A DNA stretch of 64,000 nucleotides from Candidatus Bathyarchaeota archaeon (GTDB lineage Archaea > Thermoproteota > Bathyarchaeia > Bathyarchaeales > Bathycorpusculaceae): positions 64,001 to 128,000 of the forward strand of contig CAVYRJ010000004.1 of the NCBI GenBank assembly GCA_963770935.1, in the 5' to 3' direction. Under the pieces are notes generated by a model that was not told the origin of the DNA, made no database searches, and saw nothing but the letters and a program-made list of their open reading frames with translations. Positions 2,121 to 45,228 of the stretch are shown here, piece by piece (the first letter of the stretch is position 1; each line of letters starts with the position of its first letter). The translations under genes and the position numbers were made by a program.

Positions 2121-4846
2121 ATGAAAAAGCTTACTGCCATTAGGAATAGTCATACTGTTCTTCGCAGGCTTAGTTCCGCTTTTATGGTTAAAACCTGATT
2201 TCATTATCAGCAATGGAGACAATATTCCACCATCCCTGAACGCTGATAAAACTTTCAGTTCTTCAGCAAGCATGTGGTCGCCTGATTACCTTGGATACGC
2301 CAGTCCCGATCCTGCTTATCTTCTAAACACTTATTTCGCCGCTTTTCTAGGGAATTTGGGAATAAGTGTGGGTTATGTTCAGATATTATTCCAAATATTG
2401 CTGTACATGGGCGCCGGCTTTGCAATGTATTTCTTCTCAAAAACAATATATTCAGACAACAAAATCGCCCCGTTTTTTGCCGCCTTCTTCTACATGTTCA
2501 ATTTTTTTATTTTAAACAGCAGGTTCAACCTCGGGTTTGCATGGCTTTACACTTTTCTTCCGTTTCTTTTAGCCTTATTTGTCAGAATTGTAAATGCATC
2601 TTACAGGCAGGATAAGAAATCAGCAAACGTAGGAGTAATTTTTTTTGCATTTGTATCGGTTGTGGCATTATCTGTGGCAAGCATTAACCCAGCAAATATT
2701 GCATTGTTTCTTTTTGCTTTGACAGTTTTTGCCGTTTACTTTCTAATTAAGCACAGAAAAAACTTGCTGCCTTTCCTATTTGCAGTAGGCAAAATAATAG
2801 CAGTCACAATCCCAATAAACATCTGGTGGATGTACCCAATGCTGAACACCTTCTTTTTTTCTCCTGCAGGACTAAATTCCCAAGTAAACGTTGCCTCTTG
2901 GAGTTGGACGCATGAGCGGGCATCTTTTTTGAACTTGTTCTGGTTTAATGGAACTTGGGGTTGGTTACCTGAGTATGTGCAGCAATGGATTATTGACTAT
3001 TACAATTATCCTGTCATTGCAGTATTGATGTTTGTTCCCTTTATTACCGCAGCAGTTGCATTGCTCTTTAAAAGTAACAAGTCGCGTTTCAACGCTTACA
3101 TCATGGCTTGTATTCTTATCTTTATTTTCTTAGCAACAGGTTTGCATGACCCTATTGCCCAACTCGTCAATTCACAACTCTATCAGCATATTCCTTTAAT
3201 GAGCATGTTTAGAGAACCTGCCTCCAAGTTCACTCTACTGGCTATTCCTTTTTTGGCTCTACTCATCGGATATGCTGCTGACAAAATAGCGAACATTAAA
3301 TTAAACGTAAGTCCCAAAAACTTAAAGTTGGCTAAAATTTTCGTTTTATTATTCTTAGCCTCCAGTTTTATAGTCTCTTCTATACCCATTTTTACACCAA
3401 GTTCTTTGGGCGGGTTTGTGGGCACGTCTTCATATGTCCAAATTCCTCAATACTGGTTTCAAGCATCAAACTGGATAAACAATCAACCTGGTGACTGGAA
3501 GATTCTTTTAATGCCACTCAACGACTTCTACCAAATGAATTATTCATGGGGATATTACGGGTCAGATCAGTTGCTTGAGAGGTTTTTTGAAAAACCAATA
3601 GTTTCAACAGCTGCTCTAAATGGGTATATAACCAATGACAATACGTCCAAGGATTTGATGCAAATACGAACCGCAGTAAAATCCAGTAACGTGGATGAAT
3701 TCAAGGCTTTGCTTGATTTATTAAGCATAAAATACATAGTACAGCGAAATGATGTCGTAACCGACATCTACGACACCAACCACGTTCTAGTTTCACTTCA
3801 AGCTGGAAGGAACCTGAAGACTCCCCTTGAGATGCAAACTTTCTTTGCTGAACAATCCAACTACCTTAAACTGGTTAAAAGCTTTGGTCAACTAGACATC
3901 TTATGAGTACACACAAGCTAAGCCTTCGATATATGCCCTATTAACTTCAACGCTGGAGCAGACAGACATTCAAATTTATGAGCGTACTAGCATTAACAAG
4001 ACAATGGATTTTTCAGTCCAAAACGATATTGAAAGTTGGAACTGGATTGCTCCCAGCAAGTCTCAAGCTACCTGTCAAATAAGCCAAAACAATGGTTCGT
4101 TGGAAGCCGAAATGAGGGCTTCACCAAACGCCTCAATAAGAATTGATTCACCCCTGATACAAGTCGAAAACCAAAGCAGGTATGTAATTAAAGCCGAAAT
4201 CTCCGCCAATAACGTTGACCGAGTTGAGTTCAAAATTGCTGAGTACTCGCAAGACAGAACTCTATTGAAAAATTGGTCTTTAGCTCAGAAAGACGATGGA
4301 AATTTTACGTCCTACGATTTAATATCTGAATTTGAACCTCGGACGGAAAATACGAAATATTTGAATATCCAAATATGGAACGATTTTTGGCATGAAACTA
4401 CCCAAGGCAATCTTACGGTGGATAGTCTCAGCGTTACCGGCACCGTTTTTACTTTAAATTCAACAGGACTTGAAAAACTATACGCAAATAGCCCCAATAA
4501 CCCAACGATTTCTAGAATCCAAAACTTAAGCCCCACCAAAATGGTTGTTTCAGTGAATGCAACTCAACCTTTTATTCTCGTAACAGGTCAAGTCCTTGAT
4601 CGATTTTGGGTTGCTTACGTGAATGGTCAGAAAGTCAGCCCCACACCCGTTTACCTAGGCTTGAAGGGTTTCATGCTTAATCAGACTGGACAATTCGATG
4701 TGACTATTGAATATGAGCCTCAGATTGAGTTTAATTATCTCTTAGCATTATCCGGAGCAACTCTGTTAATCTTATGTGTAGGGTTAGTTTATCTAAATAG
4801 GAAATCGGTTAAGGGGCTTATTAAAAAGAAACAAACAAAAGTTTGA
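2121..4846 (+). CDS. Large polytopic GT-C-like membrane protein (AftD/YfhO-like) with extracellular carbohydrate-binding-like domain and C-terminal TM; split by indels
   Basis: ORFs 2272-3906 and 4004-4846 join if one T is removed at ~3901 (LDI-YEYTQAKPSIY...KTMDF, frame open 3902-4004). The upstream in-frame hydrophobic segment LLPLGIVILFFAGLVPLLW from 2131 implies a start near 2121. About 12 TM segments, FREPASKF motif, YfhO-like C-terminus (FILVTGQVLDRFWVAYVNG). Confidence 0.65.
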
Positions 4847-4858
4847 GATGTAGAAATA

Positions 4859-6031
4859 ATGGGAGTATCTGAAAAATTCTTAGAATTCTTCAAGAAATCT
4901 TCTCACCGTTTCCCAAGGAGACTGTTTCGATTAGCTAATGAGAGCTTTGAAGTTACACGTGGGTACATCTCATCGATCAATTCCAACTCAAAGGTTATTA
5001 AAAAAACCCAAAGACAACTATTGCAGAAAAATTTTGCTCGAAACACAAAAGGCCTGATTATTTTTTTGACCCCGGGAATTGATATGGTTAATGGCGGTAT
5101 CCTCTCCATTACATCACTTTTTGAAGAGACCAAACGCCTCAATTTTCTGCACGGTTCAGAGGTTATTCTTTGTACGTATCCAAGTGATCCTCAATTACTG
5201 AAATATACAAAATTTAAAAATAACAATACTTTATACAATTTTTCCGATGTGTTTCGTTTTTTTAGTAATATTGATAATTTGATAATCCATATTCCTGAAC
5301 ATTTTATTTATCGTTTTTACTGGTTCATCTCTAAAACAGATAGGGCGATTTTAAGCAAGATTAAAAATGTGCAAATCAATATCATGATTCAAAACATTGA
5401 TTATTTACCCTCAAACAGGACCATTATGAAGCTACAAAAATTAGGAAAATTGACCAGTACAACAGCTCACTCCAAATATTCTACAATAGAACTGAAAAAC
5501 AGGCTCGGTTTTCCTTTGCATAAATTGTCAGTTTATGTTAGTCCAGAACAATATTATTTTAGAAAATTTCGTGAAAAAGAAAACTTGATGATTGTTTCAC
5601 CTGATCGGCATCCCAGAAAAATAGAAATTTTAAAATTAATTGAAAAAGAACTGCCGCTTCTAAAAATCAAGATTATCAAAAATCTGACTTATGAGGAGTA
5701 TAAAGAAACTATTTCAAGAGCAAAATGGGCTTTAACTTTCGGCGAAGGCTTAGACGGCTACTTTGTTGAAACAATCTTTAGCGGGGGAATTGGCTTTAGC
5801 GTTTATAATGCAAAATACTTTACGAAGGATTTTGGATCACTGCGTACAGTTTACGGGAGCTACGAGATTTTGATTCAGAACTTATGCAAAGATATTTTGG
5901 AACTTGACGATGAAAAAGCTTATGCCGATTACCAAAACAGACAGTTTGAGCTTTGCAGCAAACGTTACGATTACAGGAATTACCTAAAAAACCTGGAAGC
6001 TTTCTACAAAGGAGAATACACCTACAAATAG
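4859..6031 (+). CDS. Probable glycosyltransferase-like protein of unknown family
   Basis: Soluble basic 390-aa ORF inside the glycan locus. NGGILSI near the N-terminus and FGEGLDGYFVE resemble GT-B motifs. Confidence 0.5.
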   Translation: MGVSEKFLEFFKKSSHRFPRRLFRLANESFEVTRGYISSINSNSKVIKKTQRQLLQKNFARNTKGLIIFLTPGIDMVNGGILSITSLFEETKRLNFLHGSEVILCTYPSDPQLLKYTKFKNNNTLYNFSDVFRFFSNIDNLIIHIPEHFIYRFYWFISKTDRAILSKIKNVQINIMIQNIDYLPSNRTIMKLQKLGKLTSTTAHSKYSTIELKNRLGFPLHKLSVYVSPEQYYFRKFREKENLMIVSPDRHPRKIEILKLIEKELPLLKIKIIKNLTYEEYKETISRAKWALTFGEGLDGYFVETIFSGGIGFSVYNAKYFTKDFGSLRTVYGSYEILIQNLCKDILELDDEKAYADYQNRQFELCSKRYDYRNYLKNLEAFYKGEYTYK

Positions 6032-6105
6032 CTCGGTAAGCTAATAGGTAAAATTATAAGCAGAAACCTCACAGTAGCAAACGCAGTCTTCATGAAGGTT
6101 GAAAA

Positions 6106-6767
6106 ATGGCTAAAGAAACTTATATTATAGGTGCAGGCGGGTTTGCCAGAGAAACCCTTGACATATACATCGATTTAGGCAGAGAAACAGATGTTCTTGG
6201 GTTTCTGGAAGAAAATTGTCAAAATGACGGATCCATTTTAAACGGGAAGCCAGTTCATGATATATCTTATCTTAATCAAATTAATGGACAAAACAAACCT
6301 TTGGTTAATTGGTGCCATTGGATCAACTAAACGGAAAGAATCTTTTGATGAAACTTGAAAAAGAAGGATACTGCTTTGATACTTTAATTCATCCAAGCGC
6401 AATTAGGTCAAGATGGGTGACGGTTGGGGCAGGTTCTATTGTTACCCCTGGTGTAATTATGACTTGCCAAATCGACATCGGTCGGCATGTAATACTTAAT
6501 TTGGGAACCCAAATAGGTCATGATGTCAGAATAGGTGATTATTCTACACTTTCTCCGGGAGTAGAGGTAATGGGTCATGTCAATTTGGGGGATGAAGTTT
6601 ATGTTGGTACAAATGCTACCATAATTGACCGAATAAAGGTTGGAAACGGAGCAATTATTGCTGCAGGTGCTGTTGTTACAAAAGATGTTCCAGAAATGTC
6701 GCTTGTTGCTGGAGTTCCAGCTGTGGTGAAAAAAGTGTACAAGTCGCGGGAAGAAAAGCCGTGGTGA
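6106..6767 (+). CDS. Sugar N-acyltransferase, NeuD/PglD/VioB-like left-handed beta-helix family; split by two +1 indels
   Basis: IIGAGGFARE N-terminus. Removing one base at ~6306 and one at ~6336 restores VIGAIGSTKRKNLLMKL. IHPSA, IGHD, hexapeptide repeats and GAVVTKDVP..SLVAGVPA follow. Confidence 0.85.
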
Positions 6768-6772
6768 AGAGA

Positions 6773-7636
6773 ATGGAAATCAAAAAAGTGGCTGTTTTGG
6801 GCGCTGGACAAATGGGATTGAGTATTGCCCAAATTGCTGCGCAGGTAGCCGAATGTGAAGTTTATTTGTATGACATAAAAAAAGATGCCTTAAAAAACGC
6901 TATAGTTACGATAAAGAGAAACCTCCAAACATGCGTAGATAAAGGGAAAATGACTGCTGCAGAATTCAATAAAGTGACAGCTAAGATTCACCCCGTCTTT
7001 GACCTCGAAGCGGCCGTGAAGGTTGCTGAGCTAATCATTGAAGCCGTACCTGAAAATCTCGAAATAAAAAAGGCAGTATTATCCCAAACAGATAGAACCT
7101 CTAAACCAGAGGCTTTCATAGTTTCAAATACATCTTCAATAAGCATCTCTGAATTGGCATCTTCAACAAAGCGGCCTGAAAAATTTGCAGGTATGCACTT
7201 CTTTAATCCTGCTCAAGTCATAAAGCTCGTTGAAGTTGTTAGGGGTGAAAAAACCTCTGACGAGACAGTAGAGGTTATTGTTAGTGCCGCGAAGAAAATG
7301 GGTAAAGATCCTGTGATAATTAGAAAAGACTCTTCTGGTTTTGTGGTTAACCGTATTATCATTTTAGCTCTCAACGAGGCTGCTTCTCTAGTTTGGGAGG
7401 GAGTTGCTAGTCCCGAAGAAGTTGACAAAGCAATCAAGTTAGGCTTGAACTGGCCGATGGGTCCTTTGGCTTTAATTGATTTCATTGGAGTTGACACTGT
7501 TTTATCTATCTGTGAAGTATTGCAGAAAAATCTTGGACCAAAATATTCTCCGTGTCCAATTTTGGCGACAATGGTCAAGAAAGGCACTTTGGGCTGCAAA
7601 ACTGGGAAGGGTTTCTATGATTGGACAAGTCAATGA
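6773..7636 (+). CDS. hbd: 3-hydroxybutyryl-CoA / 3-hydroxyacyl-CoA dehydrogenase
   Basis: VAVLGAGQMG Rossmann fold, IEAVPENLEIK, SNTSSISI, catalytic GMHFFNP, GFVVNRI, PMGPL, GKGFY. Alternative GTG start at 6761. Confidence 0.92.
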   Translation: MEIKKVAVLGAGQMGLSIAQIAAQVAECEVYLYDIKKDALKNAIVTIKRNLQTCVDKGKMTAAEFNKVTAKIHPVFDLEAAVKVAELIIEAVPENLEIKKAVLSQTDRTSKPEAFIVSNTSSISISELASSTKRPEKFAGMHFFNPAQVIKLVEVVRGEKTSDETVEVIVSAAKKMGKDPVIIRKDSSGFVVNRIIILALNEAASLVWEGVASPEEVDKAIKLGLNWPMGPLALIDFIGVDTVLSICEVLQKNLGPKYSPCPILATMVKKGTLGCKTGKGFYDWTSQ

Positions 7637-7688
7637 TTAAATAGATTTTTAAAGATGTTGTGTCAAAAAGAAGTGAGCGATTTGCAGC

Positions 7689-8795
7689 ATGATAACAGTT
7701 ACTAAAGCGGACCTTCCTCCTATTGAGAAATACTTTGAGTATTTGAGAAAAATCTGGGCTAATCATTGGTTGACAAACGACGGCGAATTTGTGCAGTTGC
7801 TTGGTCAGCGAATAGAAGAATATCTTGGTGTTAAGAACTTGGTTTTGCTTTCTAATGGTACTGTTGCGCTTCAGTTAGCATTAAGGGCGCTTAAACTTAA
7901 AGGCGAGGTAATCACGACGCCTTTTACGTTTGCTGCAACCACTAATGTTCTGCTTTGGGAAGGTCTAACTCCAGTTTTTGCAGATATAGACTCTGAAACA
8001 TATAATATCGATCCTCGTAAAGTAGAAGAAAAAATAACTGATAAAACAAGTGCCATACTTGCAGTTCATGTTTATGGTAACCCATGCTACATGAACGAAC
8101 TCCAAAGTATTGCAGAAAGGCATAATCTTAAGATTATTTATGACGCTGCTCATGCATTCGGCGTACAGTTTGAGGGGTATCCCGTCACATGTTTTGGCGA
8201 TTTATCTACACTCAGTTTTCATGCGACAAAAGTTTTTAACACAATTGAAGGTGGAGCGGTTGTTGCCAATGACGACAGGATTGTTGAGATTCTGAAATTA
8301 ATGAGGAACCATGGGATTAAGTCGGAGACTGAGGTTGTTCTTCCAGGAACTAATGCTAAAATGAATGAATTCCAGGCTGCTATGGGATTATGCAATCTTG
8401 ATTTCGTTGATGAATCAATGAGTTCAAGAAAAGTTCTTTATGACCGATATGTTGAGCGGTTATCCGGTTTGCCAATTACTTTCCAAAAAATAGTCGCATC
8501 AAAATACAATTTTAGCTATATGCCCATTTTGTTTGAATCATCTACAGAGCGGGATTCCGTTTACTCTTTCCTTATTGAAAAAGGAATAAAACCGAGAAAG
8601 TATTTCTTTCCTCTTACAGTAAATTTTGATTATTTTAAGAAAGAAGGACTTGGGTTAGTTGAGAAATATGGACTTGAAAATGCCACAAAAATCGCTGACA
8701 GGGTTTTATGTCTTCCGCTTCATCCAAGCCTTGAGGCTTCAAAGGTTGATTATATTACATCTTTGATTGAAGAAAATCATAAACTCTATTTTTAG
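7689..8795 (+). CDS. DegT/DnrJ/EryC1/StrS PLP sugar aminotransferase, VioA-like
   Basis: SNGTVALQLAL, TTPFTFAAT, VHVYGNPC, IYDAAHAFG, SFHATKVFNTIEGG and NAKMNEFQAAMGL are typical of the VioA subgroup. Confidence 0.9.
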   Translation: MITVTKADLPPIEKYFEYLRKIWANHWLTNDGEFVQLLGQRIEEYLGVKNLVLLSNGTVALQLALRALKLKGEVITTPFTFAATTNVLLWEGLTPVFADIDSETYNIDPRKVEEKITDKTSAILAVHVYGNPCYMNELQSIAERHNLKIIYDAAHAFGVQFEGYPVTCFGDLSTLSFHATKVFNTIEGGAVVANDDRIVEILKLMRNHGIKSETEVVLPGTNAKMNEFQAAMGLCNLDFVDESMSSRKVLYDRYVERLSGLPITFQKIVASKYNFSYMPILFESSTERDSVYSFLIEKGIKPRKYFFPLTVNFDYFKKEGLGLVEKYGLENATKIADRVLCLPLHPSLEASKVDYITSLIEENHKLYF

Positions 8796-8945: not shown

Positions 8946-9308
8946 TTGCAGAATAACCCTCTAAGCCTACTTAATAGATCAGATCTGATAAAACTAAGAG
9001 TGAAAGCCATCCGCGCTGGCGTGTGGTTCAAAGCTTTACCTAGGATCGATAGAGTGCTTGTTGATTTAACGATAAAAGTAGCTGAAAACATTCGCAGTGC
9101 ATATTTAGCCAAGAGTATATTTGCTGTCGTGGGCAAGTTGGAGGGGTTATTGGAAAGCAGTGTCATGAAATCATTAAGGTTGATTGGTTGCCCGCTTGCA
9201 GAAAAAATCAGTTCTATAGCCCAAAAATTGGGCAACACTTCATCCAAGAACTGGGCGTCAGATTCATCGTTTGCGTTTTTCTTAGCTGTAATGCATACAA
9301 ATAGATGA
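8946..9308 (+). CDS. Conserved archaeal hypothetical protein, basic and helical
   Basis: 120-aa ORF with KAIRAGVWFKALPRIDRVLVDLTIKV, a pattern I recall from archaeal hypotheticals. It has an upstream TATA element and is co-directional with the locus. Confidence 0.65.
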   Translation: MQNNPLSLLNRSDLIKLRVKAIRAGVWFKALPRIDRVLVDLTIKVAENIRSAYLAKSIFAVVGKLEGLLESSVMKSLRLIGCPLAEKISSIAQKLGNTSSKNWASDSSFAFFLAVMHTNR

Positions 9309-9341: not shown

Positions 9342-10280
9342 ATGACCAAAGCTCTAGTTACTGGTGGCGCTGGATTCATTGGTAGCCATGTTGTTGACCG
9401 ATTGGTCAATGAAGGGTATGAAATTAGGATTATAGATGACTTATCTACGGGTAAATTGGACAATATTAAAGGTCATTTAAGCTCCGGCGAAGTTGAGCTG
9501 ATTAGGGGTGACATTCGTGATGCTTCTCTTGTCAAAAAAAGTCTCGAAGGCGTTACTGTTGTTATTCATTTGGCTGCATTAGTTAGTGTTCCTCTCTCTG
9601 TTGAGAATCCCAATTTAACTTTCGACATTAACCTTTTAGGAACCCTGAATTTACTTCGCTCGAGTATTCAGAAGCATATCGATCGGTTTGTGTTTATTTC
9701 CAGCTGTGCCGTTTGTGGTGAACCCGCGTCGTTGCCAGTTACCGAGGAAACGCGAACGAATCCGATTTCGCCTTATGCAGAATCAAAGCTTATCGGCGAA
9801 CGTTACTGCTTGGGCTTCAGCGAACGGCGCCTTTTGCCTTCTGTTGTGTTGCGTTTCTTCAATGTTTATGGTCCAAGGCAAGGTATGAACGAATATAGTG
9901 GAGTCATTACTCGTTTCATTGAACGATGTGGTCAGAAGTTGCCTTTGACAATCTATGGCGACGGTTTACAGACAAGAGATTTCGTTAATGTTAGAGATGT
10001 TGCAGAAGCAATTTTTGCTTCAACAAAAAGCAGCAAGGCTGAAGGCGAAGTTTTTAACATCGGTTCAGGCAAGCCTACAACTATTAACGAGCTAGCACAT
10101 GCAATTTTGGAGTTGACTGGTGTAGACTCAAAAATTAACTATGAAAAGCCTCGAGTTGGCGATATCAAAGACAGTTATGCAGACATTACCAAAGCTAAGA
10201 AGTTCTTGAGTTATGAGCCTAGAGTTTCGTTGAGAGATGGTTTACATGTTTTACTTAAAGAAAAAAAGTCTACTGTATAA
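9342..10280 (+). CDS. NAD-dependent nucleotide-sugar 4-epimerase (GalE/WbpP-like)
   Basis: LVTGGAGFIGSH, HLAALVSV, SPYAESK (YxxxK), LRFFNVYGPRQ, GDGLQTRDFV. Confidence 0.9.
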   Translation: MTKALVTGGAGFIGSHVVDRLVNEGYEIRIIDDLSTGKLDNIKGHLSSGEVELIRGDIRDASLVKKSLEGVTVVIHLAALVSVPLSVENPNLTFDINLLGTLNLLRSSIQKHIDRFVFISSCAVCGEPASLPVTEETRTNPISPYAESKLIGERYCLGFSERRLLPSVVLRFFNVYGPRQGMNEYSGVITRFIERCGQKLPLTIYGDGLQTRDFVNVRDVAEAIFASTKSSKAEGEVFNIGSGKPTTINELAHAILELTGVDSKINYEKPRVGDIKDSYADITKAKKFLSYEPRVSLRDGLHVLLKEKKSTV

Positions 10281-13330: not shown

Positions 13331-15397
13331 TTGTGTGGCATTTTTGGGCTATTAATCGGTGAGGATCTAAAGCTCTCACCCAAAGATCTAATGCAAGTCT
13401 TAAACAGCATTTTTAAGTTGTCAGAGTCTCGTGGTAAAGAAGCGTCAGGGTTAGCTGTTAGACTTAAGGATTCAATTTATGTGCTTAAGGAGCCAATTAC
13501 CTCATCAAAACTAGTTAAGACCTCAAGGTACAAAGAGCTGTTCAATCAAACAATAAACACTGAGGGATATAATGGCTATCAGTTGCAAGCTCCAATTTTA
13601 ATCTTGGGTCATTCACGCTTGCAAACTAACGGTCAAAGTGAAATCAACGCTAACAATCAGCCCGTTGTGAAGGATGGAGCCGTTGGAATCCATAATGGAA
13701 TTATTGTTAATGATGATAAATTATGGAAATCATTTTCTGAACTAAAAAAGAAATATGATGTTGATACAGAGGTATTTCTTGGTTTATTGCAGATGTTTCG
13801 GGCTCAAGGCAAATCTGTAATTGAAGCTTTAAAGCTTGTTTTTGAACAAATTGAGGGTTCAGCTTCTGTGGCTGTTGAATTTGATGATGTTAATAATCTT
13901 ATACTTGCATCAAACACTGGTTCACTTTATATGGCTTTGGACAAAAGTGAGAAGATTTTGGTGTTTGCTTCTGAAAAATATATTCTTCAACAGGTTCTTA
14001 ATAATAAATTATTAAGAAATCTCTTCGCTGAATGGCAAATAACACAGGTTAAGGCAGGTCAAGGTTACCTATTCGATCTTAATTTAACAAAAAAGCAGAT
14101 GTTTTCATTAAATGAGACTTCAGTTGAAAATGCCGCTGTTTGTCAATCAAAGTCAAAAGCCAAAATCTATGAACTCTACGACCAGCAATCTCCACTACTT
14201 CCAGACCCAAGCCAATACCTTTTGGGAGAAGATATTAAACGAGTGATGATTCAAAACTGGAAAGCACTTTATTCAAGTGAAACTTCGCTAAAAAGGTGTA
14301 ACCGTTGCCTTTTGCCTGAGACGATGCCTTTCATATGCTTTGATCAAGAAGGCGTTTGTAGTTATTGTAGAGATTATGAGACAAGAGGTAATTACCTGAA
14401 AGGAGAAAAAGCGCTTGAAGAATTTATTTCTCAGTATCGGAGTAATTCAGGCGAACCAGATGTTCTTTTGGGTTTTAGTGGTGGAAGAGACAGCGCATTT
14501 GGATTGGACTACATTAAGAATACTTTGGGTTTGCATCCCATAACTTTTACATACGATTGGGGGATGGTAAACGACCTTGCTCGCAGAAATCAAGCAAGAG
14601 TAGTTGGTAAACTGGGCATAGAACACATTGTTATTTCAGCTGACATTCGAACTAAACGTACAAACATACGTAAGAATTTGAAGGCTTGGTTGAAAAGACC
14701 AGATCTAGGTATGGTTCCCATACTTATGGCTGGAGACAAGCAATTTTATTATTATTTTCACAAGGTTCGAAAGCAAACTGGAATAAAGCTGTTCATTTTC
14801 TGCGGTGGATATGAAGGTGAAGAAGGAACTGGACTTTTCAAGTACGGGTTTTGTAACGTTACAACTCAAGGTAATAAGAATGCGTTGAAGCGAATGACTG
14901 GTATTTCACGAAAAAATAAGTTAAAAATAATGTATTATTATCTGAAGCAATTTGTTATGAACCCTGCTTATATTAACAAGTCAATATTTGATACTTTGTT
15001 TGCCTATTATTCCTCTTATGTATTGACTGATGATTATTTGTATCTTTTCCACTATTTGGATTGGGACGAAAGCAAAATTGTAAATTCTATAACTGAGAAG
15101 TTCAATTGGGAAAGAGAGACTGATACAATTGCAACTTGGCGCACTGACGATGGTACAGCAGCATTCTATAACTATATTTATATGACGTTGGCAGGGTTTA
15201 CTGAGTTTGACATTTTTAGGAGCCATCAAATACGAGAAGGTAAACTGACCAGAGCTCAAGCGTTTGAAATCATAAAAGAAGAAAACAAACCTCGTTTCAA
15301 ATCCATAGAATGGTATGGACAAGCCATTGATTTTGACATGAACAAAGCTATAGAAACAATAAACTCGGCACCAAGACTTTACCCGAAAACCAAATAA
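13331..15397 (+). CDS. Fusion of class II (Ntn) glutamine amidotransferase and PP-loop N-acetyl-sugar amidotransferase (WbpG/WbuX-like)
   Basis: MCGIFG with N-terminal Cys, SRG, GHSRL, HNGII, DTE. The second half has CNRC-x-CSYC, PP-loop GFSGGRDS and IREGKLTRAQA. Confidence 0.8.
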   Translation: MCGIFGLLIGEDLKLSPKDLMQVLNSIFKLSESRGKEASGLAVRLKDSIYVLKEPITSSKLVKTSRYKELFNQTINTEGYNGYQLQAPILILGHSRLQTNGQSEINANNQPVVKDGAVGIHNGIIVNDDKLWKSFSELKKKYDVDTEVFLGLLQMFRAQGKSVIEALKLVFEQIEGSASVAVEFDDVNNLILASNTGSLYMALDKSEKILVFASEKYILQQVLNNKLLRNLFAEWQITQVKAGQGYLFDLNLTKKQMFSLNETSVENAAVCQSKSKAKIYELYDQQSPLLPDPSQYLLGEDIKRVMIQNWKALYSSETSLKRCNRCLLPETMPFICFDQEGVCSYCRDYETRGNYLKGEKALEEFISQYRSNSGEPDVLLGFSGGRDSAFGLDYIKNTLGLHPITFTYDWGMVNDLARRNQARVVGKLGIEHIVISADIRTKRTNIRKNLKAWLKRPDLGMVPILMAGDKQFYYYFHKVRKQTGIKLFIFCGGYEGEEGTGLFKYGFCNVTTQGNKNALKRMTGISRKNKLKIMYYYLKQFVMNPAYINKSIFDTLFAYYSSYVLTDDYLYLFHYLDWDESKIVNSITEKFNWERETDTIATWRTDDGTAAFYNYIYMTLAGFTEFDIFRSHQIREGKLTRAQAFEIIKEENKPRFKSIEWYGQAIDFDMNKAIETINSAPRLYPKTK

Positions 15398-20388: not shown

Positions 20389-23300
20389 ATGAACGCCATG
20401 AATTCTTACAAGAATCTGCTCAGGAATATAGATGTCTTAGCAGTTATCTTGGCAATTGCAGGGTGGGTTATCCTCATTTCTGATAATCCTCTGTCAGTTT
20501 ATATGGGTATGATCATTGGGGTAGCAGCAGGCTTAGTCTACTATTTTATCAAAACCAAACAGGGAAAAATAATCAAAATTCCAGTAATTCCTTCATTTAT
20601 TTCCTCAATTATCTTAATTATACTATTTTTTGTCTTTATATTTACACTCTTCACTCAGGAAACAGGCCTAATTGCTCTTAATTGGTTTGTCATACAAACG
20701 TCAGATTGGATAAGTTTCATCGTGACAAACGCTTTCTTGACTTTCATACCAGGATTTATCATATTGAATGCAATCGATCGGGAAAGCAAAATTTCCACAA
20801 TGCCGCGCATAGTAATTTCTGTACTTTTAAGTATATTCTTAAGTTCCCAATTGATTTATGTTGCCAAACAAATTACCCTTGATAGTTTTTCAACAAATAT
20901 TCTATTTATCACCGTTAATTTTGCACTTATAGCAATCTTCCTCAGGATAAAATTAAAGAAGCAAACTCCGATTCGACAAAAATACAAAGAAATAAACGTC
21001 AATTTAATGTTGGCTATTGTCTTTCTTATTATTCTTTCGGCAATTCTTGTTTATCTTCAACAATTTGTTTATGAAGCATTTGTAAGGGGCGATAACTGGA
21101 ATTATTTGGCTACGTCGAATTACATCGATAAAGGCGCATCTTCTTTGACGCCCGTTGGCAAGTTCTATAGTATAAAGTCACTATCGATTTATGAACTTTA
21201 CAATTTAGGATTATTCAGTCTATCTGGTTTTCCTGCAGTCAATTCGATGATGATAACTAGCATTGTTATTGCATCTTTGATACCTGTTGCTTTTTTTGTA
21301 ATGAGCTCACAGTATTTGAGAAGTAAGAAAATTACCCTTCTATCAACCCTAGTTTATATCGCGATTTCAGGCTTTGGCTGGATACCTTTCATTAGTCAGA
21401 AAATAGGTTTAGGTATACAGCATTATAATCCTCAGGAATTGTTTACGATTTTAGCTGGTATTGCACCTCAAGTCCTTAATGATATTTCTCAACCTCAAGG
21501 TAGCATTCCTGAAGGTTTCAAGACTTATGTTCTAGCTCTTATTTCAATCATGATGTTGCTATTTTTAATTAAGAGTCAACTATCTACAAAATCAAGAGTT
21601 TTTTTGATTGCGGTATTAACTGCTTTTGCTTTCTTGGCTCACATAGAGACAACTTTGGCGTTCTTTTTCGCATTTTTACCTGCTTATGTTCTCTTAAGTA
21701 AAAAGAAATTGCGTATTGTAAGAGAGAATATTGTGGCTCTTGCGCTGGGTATTCTACTTACGTTTGTAATAGGTTTGTCATCTCTGACTACGCTGATAAT
21801 TCCTTTTGAACTTAACTATCTGTTAGTTGCTTTTGTTCTTGGCGCGCTCCTAATCTATACCTATCTCAAACAGTATTTGAAATTAAAGCTTCCAAATTTC
21901 ACAAATATTTATGAGTTTTTTAAAAAGTCAGCATTGCTATTGATCTGTTATTTCTATTTCCTTTCACTTATCGTTCTCATTTCGTATGGTTTCTCACATA
22001 TGTATTATGGTGACTCTGTAGTATACTTAGGATTTACCTTCCCCTGGTATTATTATCCTTTAAGTTTTGGTATTGCTGGAGCTCTTTCTTTATTAGGCCT
22101 ATCTATTAAGTTTGAAAAATACAAGTCCTTATCCTTTTTTGTACTTGCCGCAGTGTTAACTATCGTTTTGGGCATTGCAGTATCATATCTGAATCTCAAT
22201 TTTTTTAATACAGGCACGAAGGAGTGGCGTTTAATATACAGAATTCTGCCGATAGCCACTTCTATTTTTGGTGGTTGGGCGCTATTCAAGTTAATGGTTA
22301 TTTTTAAGAAAATTGACTTTCATGTAATTTATCGAGCGGCAAGAACTGAAAACTGTCACCGAATTAGGTTGCGGCGTCTCTCTTTTGTTTTATTTTTATC
22401 TGTAATTATCCTTGGGGTTCCTAGCACAATTATTTCTTCAGAGTACTGGATGACTTCAAATATAACTCCTTTCGGTTCGGCTTATGCAACTATTGAAAAC
22501 CTTGAATTAGCTAACTTCGTTAACCAAAATGTTCCCATTACTTCACGAGTGGCTACCACAGGTGATATGTCAAATGCTATAATAAAACTGGCAGGGGGCA
22601 CAACGGCTATACCTTCAATATATCCTGACTTTCTACTTTCCTCCCGTCCTGAAACAATAGCTTTCCTTTCTTCCGATGTAGGGTTTGTTTGCATAGATAA
22701 GGAGATTGCTGAGCCTTCTGTGAACCGCGACTTCATAAGCTATCTCCCCATAGTGCTTGATAACGCTCGTTTCTCAGTCTATAGTTTACCATACTTAGAG
22801 TCGCCGTCTCAATCCAGTTTAGGGTACTTAGCTCCATTGCAGTATAGTAATGACACTCTTCTATCATACCTACTTATTTCATCTTTGAACTCCTCTTATC
22901 AACTGGTAAATGACGATTTTTATAAAAAATCAATAGTAATAACGCCATCCGATCTCGAAATAAATGAACAAAGTGCTTACAATGTCAATAGTTCTGATTT
23001 GCTTGATTGGGTACGTGACGGAGGCACATTTATAGTAATGGGTGGGCAAGGTGCCATGTTTAACTCGCTTGGCTTGTTTTTTGGGGGCATAAATTATCAT
23101 GCAAACTCTACAGCCAACGGTATTAGTATCACCTCTACAACATATCCCATTAAAACACTTAACCTTAAGCCACTTAATTATCGCGTTGATGCTGATGTTC
23201 ACGTCTTGAGTTATTATTCGCTGAACGGTAGCAAGGTATCTCCTTTCATAACTGAAAAAAGGATCGGAAACGGAACTATCTTTTATGTTTACATTGATCC

Positions 23301-24150
23301 TATCTATCAAGCGATAGAAACAGGAAACAATGGCTGGATCGCAAATTATGAATTAGTCACAATTGTCAAAAATGCCCTTGAAAAAGGTGGTATTCATTTT
23401 CCTGAGAGTTATGGAGGGCTATCCAGAGATCCGTTGGAAAATAGGTGGATAGGCAAATACGATACGTACGGAACGAACGATTTCTTGGCAGAGGGTAACA
23501 TAACAACTATTGCAAATGTCTCAGGTTCGCATCTAATAGCGCAACCAATTCGAGCAGAAAAATTGTTTATTAATGATGTGCGGCAGATCACAATTAATAA
23601 TACAAAAATCAATTCGATCAGAATTTCGGGTTCTGTCAGTTTAGAAGTGAAATCTAACATATGCAATTTAACTGGTTTAGACGGTAATGCTATTCCCTCT
23701 TATGTTCCACTTAAGTATGAAAATAGCTCTATTAGAATGACCGTTGGCAATGGCTCTAAAATTGAAATCTATACTGCGAAAGGGAATTATTCGATTAATG
23801 ATGGTTCAATATTGATTGAAACAAACTCGGCAGGACTTGTTTTATTAAAACCTCAGATTATTGTTGATGGCGCAATTACTTTTTCACAGATTTCACTACC
23901 TTCTGATTCTTCTGCTTGGAATTTTAACGTACGACTTGTCGGAAATCTGAACTTTAGAATTGGCTATAGTGATGGCACCTATATGTTCATGGACGAGTTC
24001 GTGGGTGAATACGATAGGATTGTTCAAAATGATGCTATCGTCGATGTGATCCCTTGGACAGCTATTCTTTTCTCATTGCCTAACATCTTTCTAGTAATAG
24101 GCATAATCTTTTTAGGGGCTTTAACATTCAGGAAGTGGAAAAACACATGA
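20389..24150 (+). CDS. 1253-aa polytopic membrane protein, GT-C-like N-terminal half plus large extracellular domain and C-terminal anchor
   Basis: About 18-20 hydrophobic segments and an RGDNWNY loop after the early TMs. The soluble region has many N-x-S/T sequons and a LLDWVRDGGTFIVMG segment. Confidence 0.6.
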   Translation: MNAMNSYKNLLRNIDVLAVILAIAGWVILISDNPLSVYMGMIIGVAAGLVYYFIKTKQGKIIKIPVIPSFISSIILIILFFVFIFTLFTQETGLIALNWFVIQTSDWISFIVTNAFLTFIPGFIILNAIDRESKISTMPRIVISVLLSIFLSSQLIYVAKQITLDSFSTNILFITVNFALIAIFLRIKLKKQTPIRQKYKEINVNLMLAIVFLIILSAILVYLQQFVYEAFVRGDNWNYLATSNYIDKGASSLTPVGKFYSIKSLSIYELYNLGLFSLSGFPAVNSMMITSIVIASLIPVAFFVMSSQYLRSKKITLLSTLVYIAISGFGWIPFISQKIGLGIQHYNPQELFTILAGIAPQVLNDISQPQGSIPEGFKTYVLALISIMMLLFLIKSQLSTKSRVFLIAVLTAFAFLAHIETTLAFFFAFLPAYVLLSKKKLRIVRENIVALALGILLTFVIGLSSLTTLIIPFELNYLLVAFVLGALLIYTYLKQYLKLKLPNFTNIYEFFKKSALLLICYFYFLSLIVLISYGFSHMYYGDSVVYLGFTFPWYYYPLSFGIAGALSLLGLSIKFEKYKSLSFFVLAAVLTIVLGIAVSYLNLNFFNTGTKEWRLIYRILPIATSIFGGWALFKLMVIFKKIDFHVIYRAARTENCHRIRLRRLSFVLFLSVIILGVPSTIISSEYWMTSNITPFGSAYATIENLELANFVNQNVPITSRVATTGDMSNAIIKLAGGTTAIPSIYPDFLLSSRPETIAFLSSDVGFVCIDKEIAEPSVNRDFISYLPIVLDNARFSVYSLPYLESPSQSSLGYLAPLQYSNDTLLSYLLISSLNSSYQLVNDDFYKKSIVITPSDLEINEQSAYNVNSSDLLDWVRDGGTFIVMGGQGAMFNSLGLFFGGINYHANSTANGISITSTTYPIKTLNLKPLNYRVDADVHVLSYYSLNGSKVSPFITEKRIGNGTIFYVYIDPIYQAIETGNNGWIANYELVTIVKNALEKGGIHFPESYGGLSRDPLENRWIGKYDTYGTNDFLAEGNITTIANVSGSHLIAQPIRAEKLFINDVRQITINNTKINSIRISGSVSLEVKSNICNLTGLDGNAIPSYVPLKYENSSIRMTVGNGSKIEIYTAKGNYSINDGSILIETNSAGLVLLKPQIIVDGAITFSQISLPSDSSAWNFNVRLVGNLNFRIGYSDGTYMFMDEFVGEYDRIVQNDAIVDVIPWTAILFSLPNIFLVIGIIFLGALTFRKWKNT

Positions 24151-25133
24151 TATCCCTCACAAAAGAATTGATTAAAGAAAACGGTTCCGATGGGGTATTG
24201 TCCTTTGCTCAAAGGTTCTCACTTCAGTTAATGGAAGAATATTATAATTTCAGAAAAGGCGCCGTTAGGGTTACAGATGAAGTCTGGAGAAAAATTAATT
24301 TTAGTGCATTGAATTTGCACTCCGATTCTGAGTCAAGGTTACTTTTAAACCCGGTTGATGAAGGTTTTTCAAAAGAATTTTGTCTTTATGGCTTTAGGGA
24401 ACCATTAAATACTTTTGCCATTTTTAATAAGATTAAACGGAAAAAGCCTTTCGTTCTTGATATTGGGAGCAATCTTGGGTATTTTCCATTGGTTGAACTC
24501 CAGGCCGGCGCTAAACATGTTATAGCTGTCGAACCTGTTCCTTTGACTTTTTCTTTCCTATCAAAAACTCTTGAAAAATACGGTAATGCAACTTCTCTCA
24601 ATATTGCGATGTCCGATAAAGAGGAAATGCTAAAACTCTATGTGGCCAAAAAATTTAACGTCACTTCCTCTCAAGCTGAGTTGTTAAAAGATGGGGGGCA
24701 TGAGATTTTTAAGGAGATTACTGTTCATGCATTACCTCTCTCTAATTTAGCTGAAAAGTTTCCTATAGATTTGATCAGGCTAGATTTGGAAGGGCATGAA
24801 TATTTTATGCTTGGTAGCGATATCCCTGAACGAATTAACACTATTTGTATGGAGCTTCATGTTATTCCTCCGTTCGGAAGAGATCATGTTAGACAACTTT
24901 TTAAGAATTTTAAAAAACATGGTTTTAGGCTTTCGTTGGTCATTGATGAAATGCCACGTGGCTTTTATCCGCTTGTTAGCAACTTCGGGTTGGAAGCGAC
25001 CTATAAGTTGATTAATAGTTTTAAAAGAAAGAATTTAAGCGGTATTAGTTACGAGTTGGATGTTGACTTTGATTCTCTTGCGAATAATATTAACAGAGGC
25101 ATAATTCATCTCATATTGGAAAAAGGTTCCTAA
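24147..25133 (+). CDS. FkbM-family SAM-dependent methyltransferase
   Basis: VLDIGSNLGYF, VIAVEPVP, IDLIRLDLEGHEY, MELH. ATG overlaps the previous stop (ATGA). Confidence 0.85.
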   Translation: MISLTKELIKENGSDGVLSFAQRFSLQLMEEYYNFRKGAVRVTDEVWRKINFSALNLHSDSESRLLLNPVDEGFSKEFCLYGFREPLNTFAIFNKIKRKKPFVLDIGSNLGYFPLVELQAGAKHVIAVEPVPLTFSFLSKTLEKYGNATSLNIAMSDKEEMLKLYVAKKFNVTSSQAELLKDGGHEIFKEITVHALPLSNLAEKFPIDLIRLDLEGHEYFMLGSDIPERINTICMELHVIPPFGRDHVRQLFKNFKKHGFRLSLVIDEMPRGFYPLVSNFGLEATYKLINSFKRKNLSGISYELDVDFDSLANNINRGIIHLILEKGS

Positions 25134-28187: not shown

Positions 28188-28207
28188 CATTTACTTGGGA
28201 GGTCATA

Positions 28208-29362: not shown

Positions 29363-30091
29363 GAATTGTTGCAATAATCCAGGCTAGAATGAACAGTAAT
29401 AGGTTACCTGGGAAAGTGCTGAAAGATATTTGTGGCGAATCAATGCTTAGTCGGGTTGTTCATCGTGTTAAGTCTGCGGCTTCTTTAGATAAGGTTGTTG
29501 TTGCAACCAGCGATACGCTTGTTGATGATTTAATTGAAAATGAATGTGGTAAGTTAGGTGTCTCTGTTTTTAGAGGTAGGGAAGATGATGTACTTGACCG
29601 GTTTTTTCAAGCTGCACTTTATCATAAGGCTGAAGTTGTTGTTCGTATTACTGCTGATTGTCCTTTGATTGAGCCAGAAATTATTGATAAGGTTGTTCAA
29701 GCTTTTTTGAAGTTCAGAAGTGGATTATGCTAGTAATACATTGCAACGGACCTATCCTCGTGGTTTAGATGTTGAAGCGGTTGGTTTACAAGCTCTAACT
29801 ACCGCTTGGAAAAATTCATTTAAGCCATATCATAGAGCCCATGTAACGCCATATATTTATGAAAATACTGATTTATTCAAGCTTTTATCAGTAACTAATT
29901 CAAGTGACTGGAGCAGATATCGTTGGACCGTGGATACTCATGAAGATCTTCAATTCGTTCGTAGAGTCTATGAGATTCTAGGCGGCAACAGTCTATTCAG
30001 CTGGAATGAGGTATTGAGTCTATGCGAGGGGAATCAAAGTCTGGTCGAACTGAATTGTCATGTACAACAGAAACCTTTGGAGAAGAGTTAG
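29359..30091 (+). CDS. pseF: Nonulosonate cytidylyltransferase (SpsF/PseF-type); split by +1 indel
   Basis: IIQARMNSNRLPGKVL, RITADCPLIEP. Removing one T at ~29713 gives KSEVDYASN...YPRGLDVE...HVTPYI...RWTVDT. Confidence 0.8.
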
Positions 30092-30094
30092 TAT

Positions 30095-42583: not shown

Positions 42584-43642
42584 TTGAAAGCTCTTGTTCT
42601 CAGCGGCGGAAAAGGCACCCGGCTCAGACCTTTAACTTTTACCTGCGCAAAACAACTTATTCCTGTAGCCAACAAACCCATTTTAGGTTACGTTCTTGAC
42701 CAAGTCGCGGCAACCAACATAAAAAAAGTAGGCATAATCACGGCACCGGAGACCGGTCAATTTGTTGAAGATTACGTTAAGGATGGTTCAAGCTGGAACC
42801 TTAATGTTTGTTATATTCCTCAAGAACCGCTCGGTTTGGCACATGCAGTTAAGACAGCTAGGCGTTTTTTGCGTCAAGATTCTTTTATTATGTGTTTAGG
42901 CGATAACGTGACAGGTCAAGGCTTGGAATCGTTTGTCAAGAAATTTAATAATGGGCACCTTGACGCGCTTATTATTCTCAAAGAGGTTGAGAATCCCTCA
43001 GCCTTTGGCATTGCGCAGTTGGATGACAAAGGCAATATAGTGAGGCTTGCGGAAAAGCCTAAGACACCGATGGGCAATTTAGCAATTATCGGAACTTACC
43101 TGTTCTCCAAAAAAGTCCATGAGGCTATAGAACGAATCAAGCCATCTTGGCGTGGCGAACTAGAAATTACCGACGCCATCCAAGAAATGATTAATATGGG
43201 CTTCTCTGTAAAAGCTGAAATATTAGATTCTTGGTGGCTTGACACAGGCAAAAAAGACGACATCTTATCCGCCAACGCCAAAATACTCGATGAGTACATT
43301 GAGTTGGACGTGAAAGGAACTGTAACCAACAGTACAATTGATGGTCGGGTTAAAGTCGCGCCTGACGCAAAAATAATAAATAGCACTATCAGGGGACCGT
43401 GCATCATTGGAAAGAACACTTATATTGAAAACTCGTTTATCGGACCTTACTCAAGCATCGGCGACAACTCTAAAATTATTTGCTCAAACATCCAGTACTG
43501 TGTTATACAGGACAGTGTAACCATTAAAGACATCGAACGCCTTGAAGACAGTTTAATCGGCAAAAACGCTAAGGTAAACCGTAACGAAAGGAACCGAACC
43601 ATAAAGCTACATGTGGGCGATTACTCAGAAATAGAAGTTTGA
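42584..43642 (+). CDS. rmlA: Glucose-1-phosphate thymidylyltransferase, long form
   Basis: LSGGKGTRLRPLTFTCAKQLIPVANKP, PLGLAHAV, PSWRGELEITDAI, WWLDTGK, C-terminal LbH. Confidence 0.93.
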   Translation: MKALVLSGGKGTRLRPLTFTCAKQLIPVANKPILGYVLDQVAATNIKKVGIITAPETGQFVEDYVKDGSSWNLNVCYIPQEPLGLAHAVKTARRFLRQDSFIMCLGDNVTGQGLESFVKKFNNGHLDALIILKEVENPSAFGIAQLDDKGNIVRLAEKPKTPMGNLAIIGTYLFSKKVHEAIERIKPSWRGELEITDAIQEMINMGFSVKAEILDSWWLDTGKKDDILSANAKILDEYIELDVKGTVTNSTIDGRVKVAPDAKIINSTIRGPCIIGKNTYIENSFIGPYSSIGDNSKIICSNIQYCVIQDSVTIKDIERLEDSLIGKNAKVNRNERNRTIKLHVGDYSEIEV

Positions 43643-44220: not shown

Positions 44221-45228
44221 ATGAAACTGTTAGTTACTGGTGGTTTAGGATTTATCGGAAGCAACTTCTGCAGGCTAATGCTTGCTAAACACCCTGACTA
44301 TGAATTGATAAATGTAGACAAAATTGGCATAGGAGCTAACCCGTCGAATTTGCATGATATCGAGAATGATAAGCGGTACACTTTCATTAAGGGCGATATT
44401 TGTAACCCGCTACTCATGAACCGTTTGGTTCATCAAGTGGATGCGGTTGTGAATATTGCGGCGGAAACGCATGTTGACCGAAGCATCTCTGACCCTAATG
44501 TGTTCCTGCAGAACAACACTGTTGGCACCTTCACGATTTTGGAAGCCATCCGAAAGCATAATCATAAAGCTAGGCTTTTGCAAGTCTCTACAGACGAGGT
44601 TTACGGTGAAGCCCTCGAAGGCTCATTTACGGAAAACACCTCGCCTAAACCTTCTAATCCTTACTCAGCTGCCAAAGCCGCCGCCGACATGTTCGTGCTG
44701 TCTTACCACAGAACTTATGGTTTAAACGTATCAATAACCCGGTGCACCAACAATTTCGGACCCTACCAGCTTCCTGAAAAATTAATTCCCAAAACAGTCA
44801 TCCGCGCTTTAAGGGACCTACCAATTCCAATTTATGGTAAAGGTACAAACATTCGCGACTGGATATACGTTCAAGACCATTGTGAAGCTCTAAACACAGT
44901 GCTTGAAAAGGGCAAACCGGGAGAAATCTATAATGTTTCTGCAGGAAACGAGATTGCAAACATTGAAATCGTTAAGAAAATTATCTGCTTGCTGAATAAA
45001 CCAGAGAGCCTGATCACCTACGTTGAAGACCGACCCGGCCATGACACACGCTACAGTTTAGATTCTGCAAAAACCAGAAATGAACTGGGTTGGAAGCCAA
45101 AGTTCAGCTTTGAGAAGTCTATAGAGTCGACAGTTAAATGGTATCTTGACAACGAGCACTGGTGGACACCGTTTGCAACCGAAGTTATTTTGCATCCGAC
45201 ACCATGGAAATTCGGTGGCATTCATTGA
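44221..45228 (+). CDS. rmlB: dTDP-glucose 4,6-dehydratase
   Basis: VTGGLGFIGSNF, AAETHVDRSI, VSTDEVYG, PYSAAKA, PEKLIP, DRPGHDTRY. Confidence 0.95.
   Translation: MKLLVTGGLGFIGSNFCRLMLAKHPDYELINVDKIGIGANPSNLHDIENDKRYTFIKGDICNPLLMNRLVHQVDAVVNIAAETHVDRSISDPNVFLQNNTVGTFTILEAIRKHNHKARLLQVSTDEVYGEALEGSFTENTSPKPSNPYSAAKAAADMFVLSYHRTYGLNVSITRCTNNFGPYQLPEKLIPKTVIRALRDLPIPIYGKGTNIRDWIYVQDHCEALNTVLEKGKPGEIYNVSAGNEIANIEIVKKIICLLNKPESLITYVEDRPGHDTRYSLDSAKTRNELGWKPKFSFEKSIESTVKWYLDNEHWWTPFATEVILHPTPWKFGGIH

Follow-up and report, generated by a model that had tools for sequence, protein, structure and literature searches.

A conserved acyltransferase–Hbd–aminotransferase cassette in a glycan island of Bathyarchaeia as a candidate route to an N-(3-hydroxybutyryl) amino sugar

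The gene cassette and its location

The DNA that we analyzed (the window, 64,000 nucleotides; G000:C4:64001-128000) comes from a Candidatus Bathyarchaeota genome of 1.98 Mb in 18 contigs, which is 91% complete. Near its start, the window carries three consecutive genes: a sugar N-acyltransferase with a left-handed β-helix (LbH) fold of the VioB/PglD type, a 3-hydroxybutyryl-coenzyme A (CoA) dehydrogenase (Hbd) and a DegT-family aminotransferase that resembles DesI and VioA (Table 1). An initial annotation of this DNA had proposed these three genes and we find them at the same positions. The Hbd ATG at 6773 lies 5 nt past the acyltransferase stop codon (6765-6767) and a second possible start, the GTG at 6761, overlaps with this codon, so that both of the arrangements that had been proposed for this junction can be read. 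The three genes belong to one glycan island, which runs from position 12 to ~46,100, nearly all on the + strand, with archaeal housekeeping genes beyond it.

The archaeal origin of the DNA is confirmed by the nearest Hbd relatives, which come from metagenome-assembled genomes of Bathyarchaeia. Bathyarchaeia are very abundant uncultured archaea of sediments, peat and soil. The sequencing runs with contigs matching the window are labeled (labels only) as wetland, soil, peat and sediment, and no RNA runs containing the stretch were found.

Table 1. Genes and sequence features of the window discussed in the text, the three cassette genes first
Feature	Coordinates	Strand	Basis or context
VioB/PglD-type LbH sugar N-acyltransferase	6106..6767	+	PglD_N, Hexapep, TIGR03570
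3-Hydroxybutyryl-CoA dehydrogenase (Hbd, 3HCDH family)	6773..7636	+	Pfam, PRK05808, clostridial structures
DegT-family sugar aminotransferase, DesI/VioA-like	7689..8795	+	PF01041 327.5 bits over 345 residues
GT-C (AftD-like) membrane glycosyltransferase	2185..4846	+	PF11847 57.6 bits; conserved upstream neighbour
Conserved 390-amino-acid protein, predicted GT-B glycosyltransferase fold	4859..6031	+	Foldseek on AlphaFold2 model
TTATAA, TATA-like hexamer	6054..6059	+	In 74-nt spacer 5' of acyltransferase
GalE/WbpP-like NDP-sugar 4-epimerase	9342..10280	+	Top PDB matches 6wjb (1e-66), 4zrm (1e-61)
FkbM methyltransferase	24135-25133		Within glycan island
RmlA, glucose-1-phosphate thymidylyltransferase, long archaeal form	42584..43642	+	TIGR01208 453 bits, cut-off 320
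RmlB, dTDP-glucose 4,6-dehydratase	44221..45228	+	TIGR01181 468.7 bits, cut-off 365

Conservation and distribution of the cassette

The distribution of the cassette was followed in 120 species representatives of the genus, the window genome (G000) included. The order acyltransferase, Hbd, aminotransferase is found in five of these species (G000, G012, G022, G048 and G105), the block having the same order and tight spacing in the last four, and a metagenome contig (L106) carries the same block of GT-B protein, acyltransferase, Hbd and aminotransferase. A scan of metagenomes with the acyltransferase gave three loci, among them L106 with the complete cassette and L107, a contig edge with up280, GT-B protein and acyltransferase. 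The conserved core consists of the GT-C glycosyltransferase, the 390-amino-acid protein, the acyltransferase, Hbd, the aminotransferase and a short-chain dehydrogenase/reductase (SDR) that is similar to 4-epimerases. In six of the seven loci that hold the acyltransferase clade, Hbd separates the acyltransferase gene from that of the aminotransferase. Judged from this shared gene order, the cassette is a conserved unit rather than a chance adjacency.

Beyond the genus the cassette was not found. When Hbd was searched across GTDB species and the flanks of the 80 best loci were taken, only one locus (L024, which is that of G048) had an acyltransferase and an aminotransferase within 6 kb. In an evenly drawn phylum sample of 401 genomes, with the acyltransferase as the query, matches were limited to G000, G057 and one 37% match in G263.

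In G048 we also observe a second, partial copy of the GT-B and acyltransferase genes at a contig end (L132, G048:C34:1-1826), the full cassette of this genome being on contig C103. G048 is listed with 6% contamination and the second copy may represent a second strain.

The cassette Hbd and its genomic context

Hbd shows both domains of its family, PF02737 (3HCDH_N) with 201.5 bits and PF00725 (3HCDH) with 108.3 bits, and clostridial Hbd structures match it at E ~1e-74 (6aa8 and 4kue) with ~47% identity. Its NTSS, GMHFFNP, VEV and GFVVNR segments align with the same motifs in 6aa8 and 4kue, and we take the Ser, His, Glu and Asn residues of these motifs to be catalytic, with the roles that they have in the clostridial and human enzymes. 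At synonymous divergences (dS) of 0.55-0.75, the ratio of nonsynonymous to synonymous substitution rates (dN/dS) is 0.15-0.17 for Hbd, 0.10-0.13 for the acyltransferase and 0.06 for the aminotransferase; by this measure the cassette Hbd is under purifying selection.

The genome offers little of the pathway in which such an enzyme usually works. G000 has only one true 3HCDH gene. Its genome, which is 91% complete, yielded no crotonase (ECH_1) in any of its contigs, and neither did the five genomes G012, G022, G048, G105 and G075. ECH_1 is present in 5 of the 120 genus genomes and none of those five has the cassette. The initial annotation remarked that there is no thiolase or crotonase nearby, which is true for the window, and for crotonase it extends to the genome. 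A thiolase gene (83.7 bits) adjoins a DUF35-type gene elsewhere in G000; in the archaeal mevalonate pathway thiolase, HMG-CoA (hydroxymethylglutaryl-CoA) synthase and a DUF35 protein form a complex.

Since no crotonase was found in the genome, Hbd does not appear to be a housekeeping copy. The concern that the linkage might be peculiar to this genome, and the gene simply its only housekeeping hbd, does not apply: the linkage recurs (5/120 species and L106), and the gene is the sole Hbd but not a housekeeping one. Because there is no crotonase, only a single copy and purifying selection on it, we conclude from the sequences that Hbd is retained and functional in genomes where its usual pathway is missing, and only inside the cassette.

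Origin of the cassette Hbd

A tree of 99 Hbd rows, six of them cassette copies, groups all six cassette Hbds in one clade (SH-aLRT, the approximate likelihood-ratio support, 99), nested in a Bathyarchaeia Hbd clade (99) and adjoining the Hbd of G031, a genome from another family. This is the separate clade of glycan-locus copies for which the initial annotation had suggested looking. The cassette branches are long (0.39 for the window copy vs a median of 0.084). Among the non-cassette Bathyarchaeia rows, a crotonase lies within two open reading frames (ORFs) of hbd in 39 of 46 by BLAST, or 37 of 43 when identical rows are counted once; at the Bathyarchaeia hbd loci that were checked with Pfam, ECH_1 is directly 3' of hbd in all eight and thiolase comes next in five of the eight. 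The best explanation of this phylogeny and these neighbourhoods is that the cassette Hbd derived from the hbd–crotonase(–thiolase) operon type of other Bathyarchaeia, with a single entry into the cassette.

Compared with the Hbd of clostridial and Bathyarchaeial hbd-crt-thl operons, the cassette enzyme keeps the two domains, the catalytic motifs and the ~47% identity to the clostridial proteins, whereas it has no crotonase or thiolase neighbours, has a longer branch and scores below the family cut-off. It would thus be a central-metabolism enzyme that has changed jobs, the sole remnant of its pathway, surviving only within a glycan operon.

A separately placed Hbd of the same genus is found in G075 (L033/L015, G075:C4). 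It is 50% identical, has a long branch and resides in a genome with no crotonase found; it is convergent to a Hexapep acyltransferase, a polysaccharide deacetylase, a GT4 glycosyltransferase and an FkbM methyltransferase, on a contig that ends 460 nt upstream. This locus may be an independent association of Hbd with glycan genes.

The acyltransferase, the aminotransferase and the sugar

In the window the acyltransferase is read in pieces, as described below. The N-terminal piece matches PF17836 (PglD_N, 26.1 bits) and the C-terminal piece PF00132 (Hexapep, 55.1 bits), and the intact acyltransferase of G057 has both domains. The 152-amino-acid C-terminal fragment alone scores 155.5 bits against TIGR03570 (NeuD/PglB/VioB), for which the cut-off is 160.8. 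Among solved structures, the G012 orthologue is closest to VioB (7txp, 1.1e-24) and the WeeI-like 4m9c (3e-24), and PglD also matches.

For the aminotransferase, which is 70-80% identical in the relatives, the top NCBIfam model is TIGR04427 (DesI), and in the PDB the first match is DesI (2po3, 2.7e-60), with perosamine synthetases (5e-50) and QdtB (2e-45) behind it. Its translation contains SFHATK, presumably the motif of the pyridoxal-phosphate-binding lysine.

The island also encodes the four Rml enzymes RmlA, RmlC, RmlB and RmlD, the last above its cut-off. RmlA and RmlB, expected at 42.6-45.2 kb in the initial annotation, both exceed their curated cut-offs, and one RmlB above its cut-off is present in each of the five relatives tested (G012, G022, G048, G105 and G057). 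In G000 we found no gene that passes the cut-off for Gmd. Because VioB and DesI are the best structure matches, RmlA and RmlB are present and no Gmd was found, dTDP-4-amino-4,6-dideoxyglucose (dTDP-Qui4N, viosamine) is favoured as the sugar. The earlier proposal that the cassette makes dTDP-Qui4N agrees with this homology and with the Rml genes; what does not fit it is that the aminotransferase falls short of the DesI equivalog cut-off.

A proposed pathway and its alternatives

Based on these data, we consider it somewhat probable that the product of the block, from the GT-B protein to the aminotransferase, is an N-(3-hydroxybutyryl)-4-amino-4,6-dideoxyhexose destined for a surface glycan, the best reading being dTDP-Qui4N with an (S)-3-hydroxybutyryl group. 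RmlA and RmlB of the same island, whose identity is clear from their scores, would provide dTDP-4-keto-6-deoxyglucose to the cassette, and the DesI/VioA-like aminotransferase, going by its best homology, would aminate C4 to give dTDP-Qui4N. The thiolase beside the DUF35 gene would supply acetoacetyl-CoA, which Hbd with NAD(P)H would reduce to (S)-3-hydroxybutyryl-CoA, the stereochemistry being that expected from the established chemistry of the family. The VioB-like LbH acyltransferase would then place the 3-hydroxybutyryl group on the 4-amino group, as the linkage of the genes suggests, and one can speculate that the adjacent GT-B protein transfers the finished sugar. The corresponding history of Hbd, a single capture from the hbd-crt-thl operon type by which it became solely a glycan-tailoring enzyme that taps the acetoacetyl-CoA of the mevalonate pathway for (S)-3-hydroxybutyryl viosamine, is proposed more tentatively, and we would put it at a little under an even chance. 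Such a cassette would link isoprenoid precursor metabolism to glycan decoration.

Several observations speak against this pathway. The first comes from G057 (L116/L138, contig C12), which keeps the GT-B protein, the acyltransferase and the aminotransferase without Hbd. Eleven genes of this locus match window genes in the same order at 60-85% identity, and the gap between acyltransferase and aminotransferase is a 361-nt A/C-rich spacer, so the acyltransferase/aminotransferase pair can persist without Hbd. No remnant of hbd was found in the spacer by tblastn (E up to 10) or blastn, and therefore gain and loss of hbd in G057 cannot be told apart from remnants. In a tree of the acyltransferase and aminotransferase together, G057 stands beside the window with support of 85/91, which is below the starred support level, and on a long branch. 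This long branch is compatible with a loss of hbd; it is, however, long in all three proteins, and no acyltransferase-specific signal of a donor switch is seen. The second group concerns specificity. PRK05808 gives Hbd 326.6 bits, under its curated cut-off of 408, and TIGR04427 gives the aminotransferase 290 bits, far under its cut-off of 650; given these scores, the substrates of both enzymes may have shifted. VioB and PglD, to which the acyltransferase is closest among solved structures, carry acetyltransferase labels, and it is the linkage of the genes from which we infer a preference for 3-hydroxybutyryl-CoA over acetyl-CoA. In addition, none of the nine longer acyltransferase homologues found is a fusion with Hbd (no 3HCDH domain), the acyltransferase of the window is itself interrupted, with no single open frame, and channelling by the archaeal thiolase, if it occurs, could leave little acetoacetyl-CoA free.

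One possible alternative is that the product is plain N-acetyl-viosamine with acetyl-CoA as the donor, and that Hbd is a passenger with an unrelated redox or CoA role. This would suit the solved relatives of the acyltransferase, with perosamine N-acetyltransferase besides VioB and PglD among them, and the same locus without Hbd in G057; it would also have a precedent in Acinetobacter baumannii, where rmlBA/vioAB lead to Qui4NAc according to the available part of PMC9676051. Yet Hbd is kept in six of seven loci under purifying selection, with no other copy in these genomes, and for an Hbd that has no crotonase partner no alternative role is apparent, and we therefore regard a plain acetyl product as unlikely.

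Another alternative retains the acyl group, in either of its forms, and changes the sugar to another 4-amino-6-deoxyhexose of the GDP-perosamine or UDP-bacillosamine type. Here the next-best structure matches (perosamine synthetases and perosamine N-acetyltransferase), the similarity of the acyltransferase to the WeeI-like 4m9c and to PglD and the missed DesI cut-off are in its favour. The genome argues the other way: besides the lack of a Gmd above its cut-off in G000, the only UDP-GlcNAc 4,6-dehydratase in the window is PseB, which is part of a complete pseudaminic-acid (Pse) pathway with its own PseC, while RmlA and RmlB are in the island and RmlB is in all of the five relatives tested. A different sugar is thus quite unlikely.

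The same product could also be reached in the reversed order, if the acyltransferase moved an acetoacetyl group and Hbd then reduced the N-acetoacetyl sugar nucleotide. For Pseudomonas syringae, the authors of PMC3927599 propose, in the part of the paper available, dTDP-N-acetoacetylviosamine as the substrate of VioR, and the long branch of Hbd and its sub-equivalog score would fit a changed substrate. All characterised close relatives of Hbd (E ~1e-74) are, however, dehydrogenases of CoA thioesters, and Hbd shows no sign of sugar-nucleotide binding, which makes this order very unlikely. The preferred pathway remains a CoA-based supply of the (S)-3-hydroxybutyryl group, for which G057 offers a natural Hbd-less variant for comparison. 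The predicted sugar residue is of ~231.11 Da, with an acyl group that adds +86.04 Da to a 4-amino-4,6-dideoxyhexose.

A 558-amino-acid metagenome protein (P0002), in which ATP-grasp domains are fused to a PglD_N + Hexapep acyltransferase, was seen among the acyltransferase relatives and may represent a different means by which acyl activation is tied to the N-acylation of a sugar.

Frame breaks in the acyltransferase

The initial annotation had the family and the coordinates of the LbH acyltransferase right and overlooked two breaks in its frame. The gene is read in frame 1 to ~6300, in frame 2 over 6305-6337 and in frame 3 from 6339, which corresponds to two single extra bases, one within 6301-6304 and one at ~6338. 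The frame-2 stretch reads LIGAIGSTKRK where the relatives have LIGAMGSTKRK, outside the breaks the gene reads as a conserved protein, and intact orthologues of 218-226 amino acids are found in G012, G022, G105, G048, L106 and G057.

We compared the breaks with Logan contigs of other samples (the best run contains 0.43 of the words). Three contigs from three runs and three studies (X1 record 2, X3 record 12 and X4 record 19) are each one base shorter at 6303/6305 and again at 6333/6339; X1 and X4 are 98-99% identical to the window and X3 ~96%. Frame breaks are also found in other genes of this genome. In the GT-C gene, the alignment with the 924-amino-acid orthologue of G012 follows frame 1 over 2185-3900 and continues in frame 2 over 3902-4843, and the PseF-like cytidylyltransferase of the Pse pathway is split by a frameshift at ~29715. 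On another contig (L100, G000:C8:249565-253224), a CobD/CbiB gene is split into the overlapping ORFs 2404-3162 and 3017-3376, which correspond to profile positions 74-282 and 2-69. As GT-C, PseF and a CobD on a separate contig are all frameshifted, the assembly seems to be indel-prone in general, and since the three contigs from other metagenomes are without the extra bases, the two in the acyltransferase are probably errors of sequencing or assembly. That the locus is truly decaying in G000, with real frameshifts in acyltransferase, GT-C and PseF and a pathway that is dead there, would account for four breaks (two, one and one) in one island but is very unlikely given the frameshifted CobD elsewhere, the three contigs that span the breaks without both extra bases and the conserved remainder of the acyltransferase.

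Comparison with known systems

The closest parallel that we found is the viosamine island of P. syringae pv. tabaci. As described in the accessible part of PMC3927599, this island (vioA, vioB, vioT, vioM, vioS, vioR and acp) leads to dTDP-Qui4N(3-hydroxy-1-oxobutyl)2Me for flagellin and has a dedicated 3-oxoacyl reductase, a ketoacyl synthase III (KAS III) and an acyl carrier protein (ACP). Based on that description, the two systems share a 4-aminotransferase of the DegT family, an LbH acyltransferase of the VioB type and a dedicated reductase for the 3-hydroxybutyryl group. A glycosyltransferase gene is adjacent in both, predicted from its GT-B fold in the archaeal case, and the keto-sugar would come from the Rml pathway. 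They differ in that the reductase is an SDR 3-oxoacyl-ACP reductase there and a 3HCDH-family Hbd of the CoA-ester type here; in that the C4 acyl group is carried on ACP with KAS III there, whereas we propose that the C4 unit comes from the thiolase of the cell here; and in that a methyltransferase (vioM) belongs to the bacterial island while none is linked to the archaeal cassette, for which (S) stereochemistry is expected. In a Pfam scan of the ORFs of at least 90 amino acids between 12 and 16658, no KAS III (vioS), ACP or SDR 3-oxoacyl-ACP reductase was found, an ACP-sized gene being below that limit. The cassette is best read as an archaeal, CoA-based counterpart that is analogous but not homologous to the viosamine island of P. 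syringae.

Modules from the K loci of A. baumannii offer a second comparison. According to PMC9676051, these modules include, besides rmlBA/vioAB, qhbCB/gdr, which gives the bacillosamine derivative QuiNAc4N-(S)-3-hydroxybutanoyl, and qhbAB/gdr, which gives the acetyl sugar. These modules share with the cassette an aminotransferase and an LbH acyltransferase acting on a 4-amino-4,6-dideoxy sugar, and the (S)-3-hydroxybutanoyl group is thereby a known N-acyl substituent; unlike in the cassette, where Hbd is embedded, no gene for acyl-CoA supply is named in the accessible parts of PMC9676051 and PMC3628348, and the difference in acyl group is attributed solely to the acyltransferase (QhbA vs QhbC). 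For 3-amino sugars, FdhC and QdhC are 3-hydroxybutanoyl transferases according to the available part of PMC4869667.

The anthrose operon of Bacillus anthracis likewise has a recruited CoA-ester enzyme next to its aminotransferase and LbH acyltransferase genes. This operon encodes an enoyl-CoA hydratase, a glycosyltransferase, an aminotransferase and an LbH N-acyltransferase and its acyl group is 3-hydroxy-3-methylbutyryl, so that there, too, the product is a hydroxy-acyl 4-amino-4,6-dideoxyglucose. The enzyme recruited is a hydratase in a bacterial host in that case, and a dehydrogenase in an archaeal host in the present one.

In a literature search, with subscription journals mostly outside its coverage, we found neither an Hbd in a glycan locus nor a 3-hydroxybutyryl archaeal glycan described, and nothing on surface glycans of Bathyarchaeia. 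If the proposed pathway is true, its use of CoA would set it apart from the bacterial ACP-based route, and for this lineage it would be the first prediction of a step that supplies the acyl donor of an archaeal glycan. In practical terms its importance is limited, as both N-3-hydroxybutyryl amino sugars and genes dedicated to acyl supply are already known in bacteria.

The surrounding glycan island

Upstream of the acyltransferase the 390-amino-acid protein, which has no Pfam or NCBIfam match, is directly 5' of it in G012, G022, G105, G057, L106 and L107 with 47-69% identity. Its AlphaFold2 model has a mean confidence (pLDDT) of 67, the top Foldseek matches are all GT-B glycosyltransferases (E 9e-8, TM-score 0.55) and its neighbours in the protein atlas include GT4 clusters at 0.94; with moderate confidence, the model points to a GT-B fold. 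The GT-C orthologues of G012, G022, G105 and G057 are single ORFs of 913-962 amino acids, each upstream of the cassette. The TATA-like hexamer, noticed in the initial annotation, is indeed at 6054-6059, and TTATAA occurs 19 times in the window vs 36 expected from shuffles. As the upstream spacers of the relatives are not conserved and cannot be aligned, its role as a promoter is at most putative.

Downstream of the cassette, the conserved SDR at 9342-10280 is 67-82% identical in G012, G022, G105 and G057. Its first PDB match, 6wjb, we take to be a UDP-GlcNAc 4-epimerase, and the second, 4zrm, is a UDP-glucose 4-epimerase. This SDR was considered as a 4,6-dehydratase within the cassette and was ruled out, as ISSCAVCG replaces the TDE of the dehydratases and 4-epimerase structures match best. 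Between aminotransferase and epimerase there is a 120-amino-acid ORF (8946-9308) with no family match, which is overlapped by an ORF on the opposite strand and is 85% identical in G012 (127 amino acids).

O-methylation of the sugar by the FkbM protein, which had been suggested as part of the module, is not supported by linkage: the gene is 15 kb off, and in G012, G022, G105 and G057 no match to it is present in the ~10 kb around the cassette. Just 5' of the FkbM gene lies an ORF of 1253 amino acids (20389-24150) with no Pfam match. The rest of the island contains GT4, GT2 and GT-C glycosyltransferases, several SDR sugar enzymes, a WbuX-like amidotransferase and a Wzx-type flippase. The complete Pse pathway occupies 27219-32657, with NCBIfam scores of 502 bits for PseB, 480 for PseC, 222 + 46 for a PseG-PseH fusion and 456 for PseI. 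At 13331-15397, a protein of 688 amino acids combines a class-II glutamine amidotransferase domain with the WbuX-like N-acetyl-sugar amidotransferase; its conservation in G012 and G057 is 80-82%, and the product of this fusion may be an acetamidino sugar.

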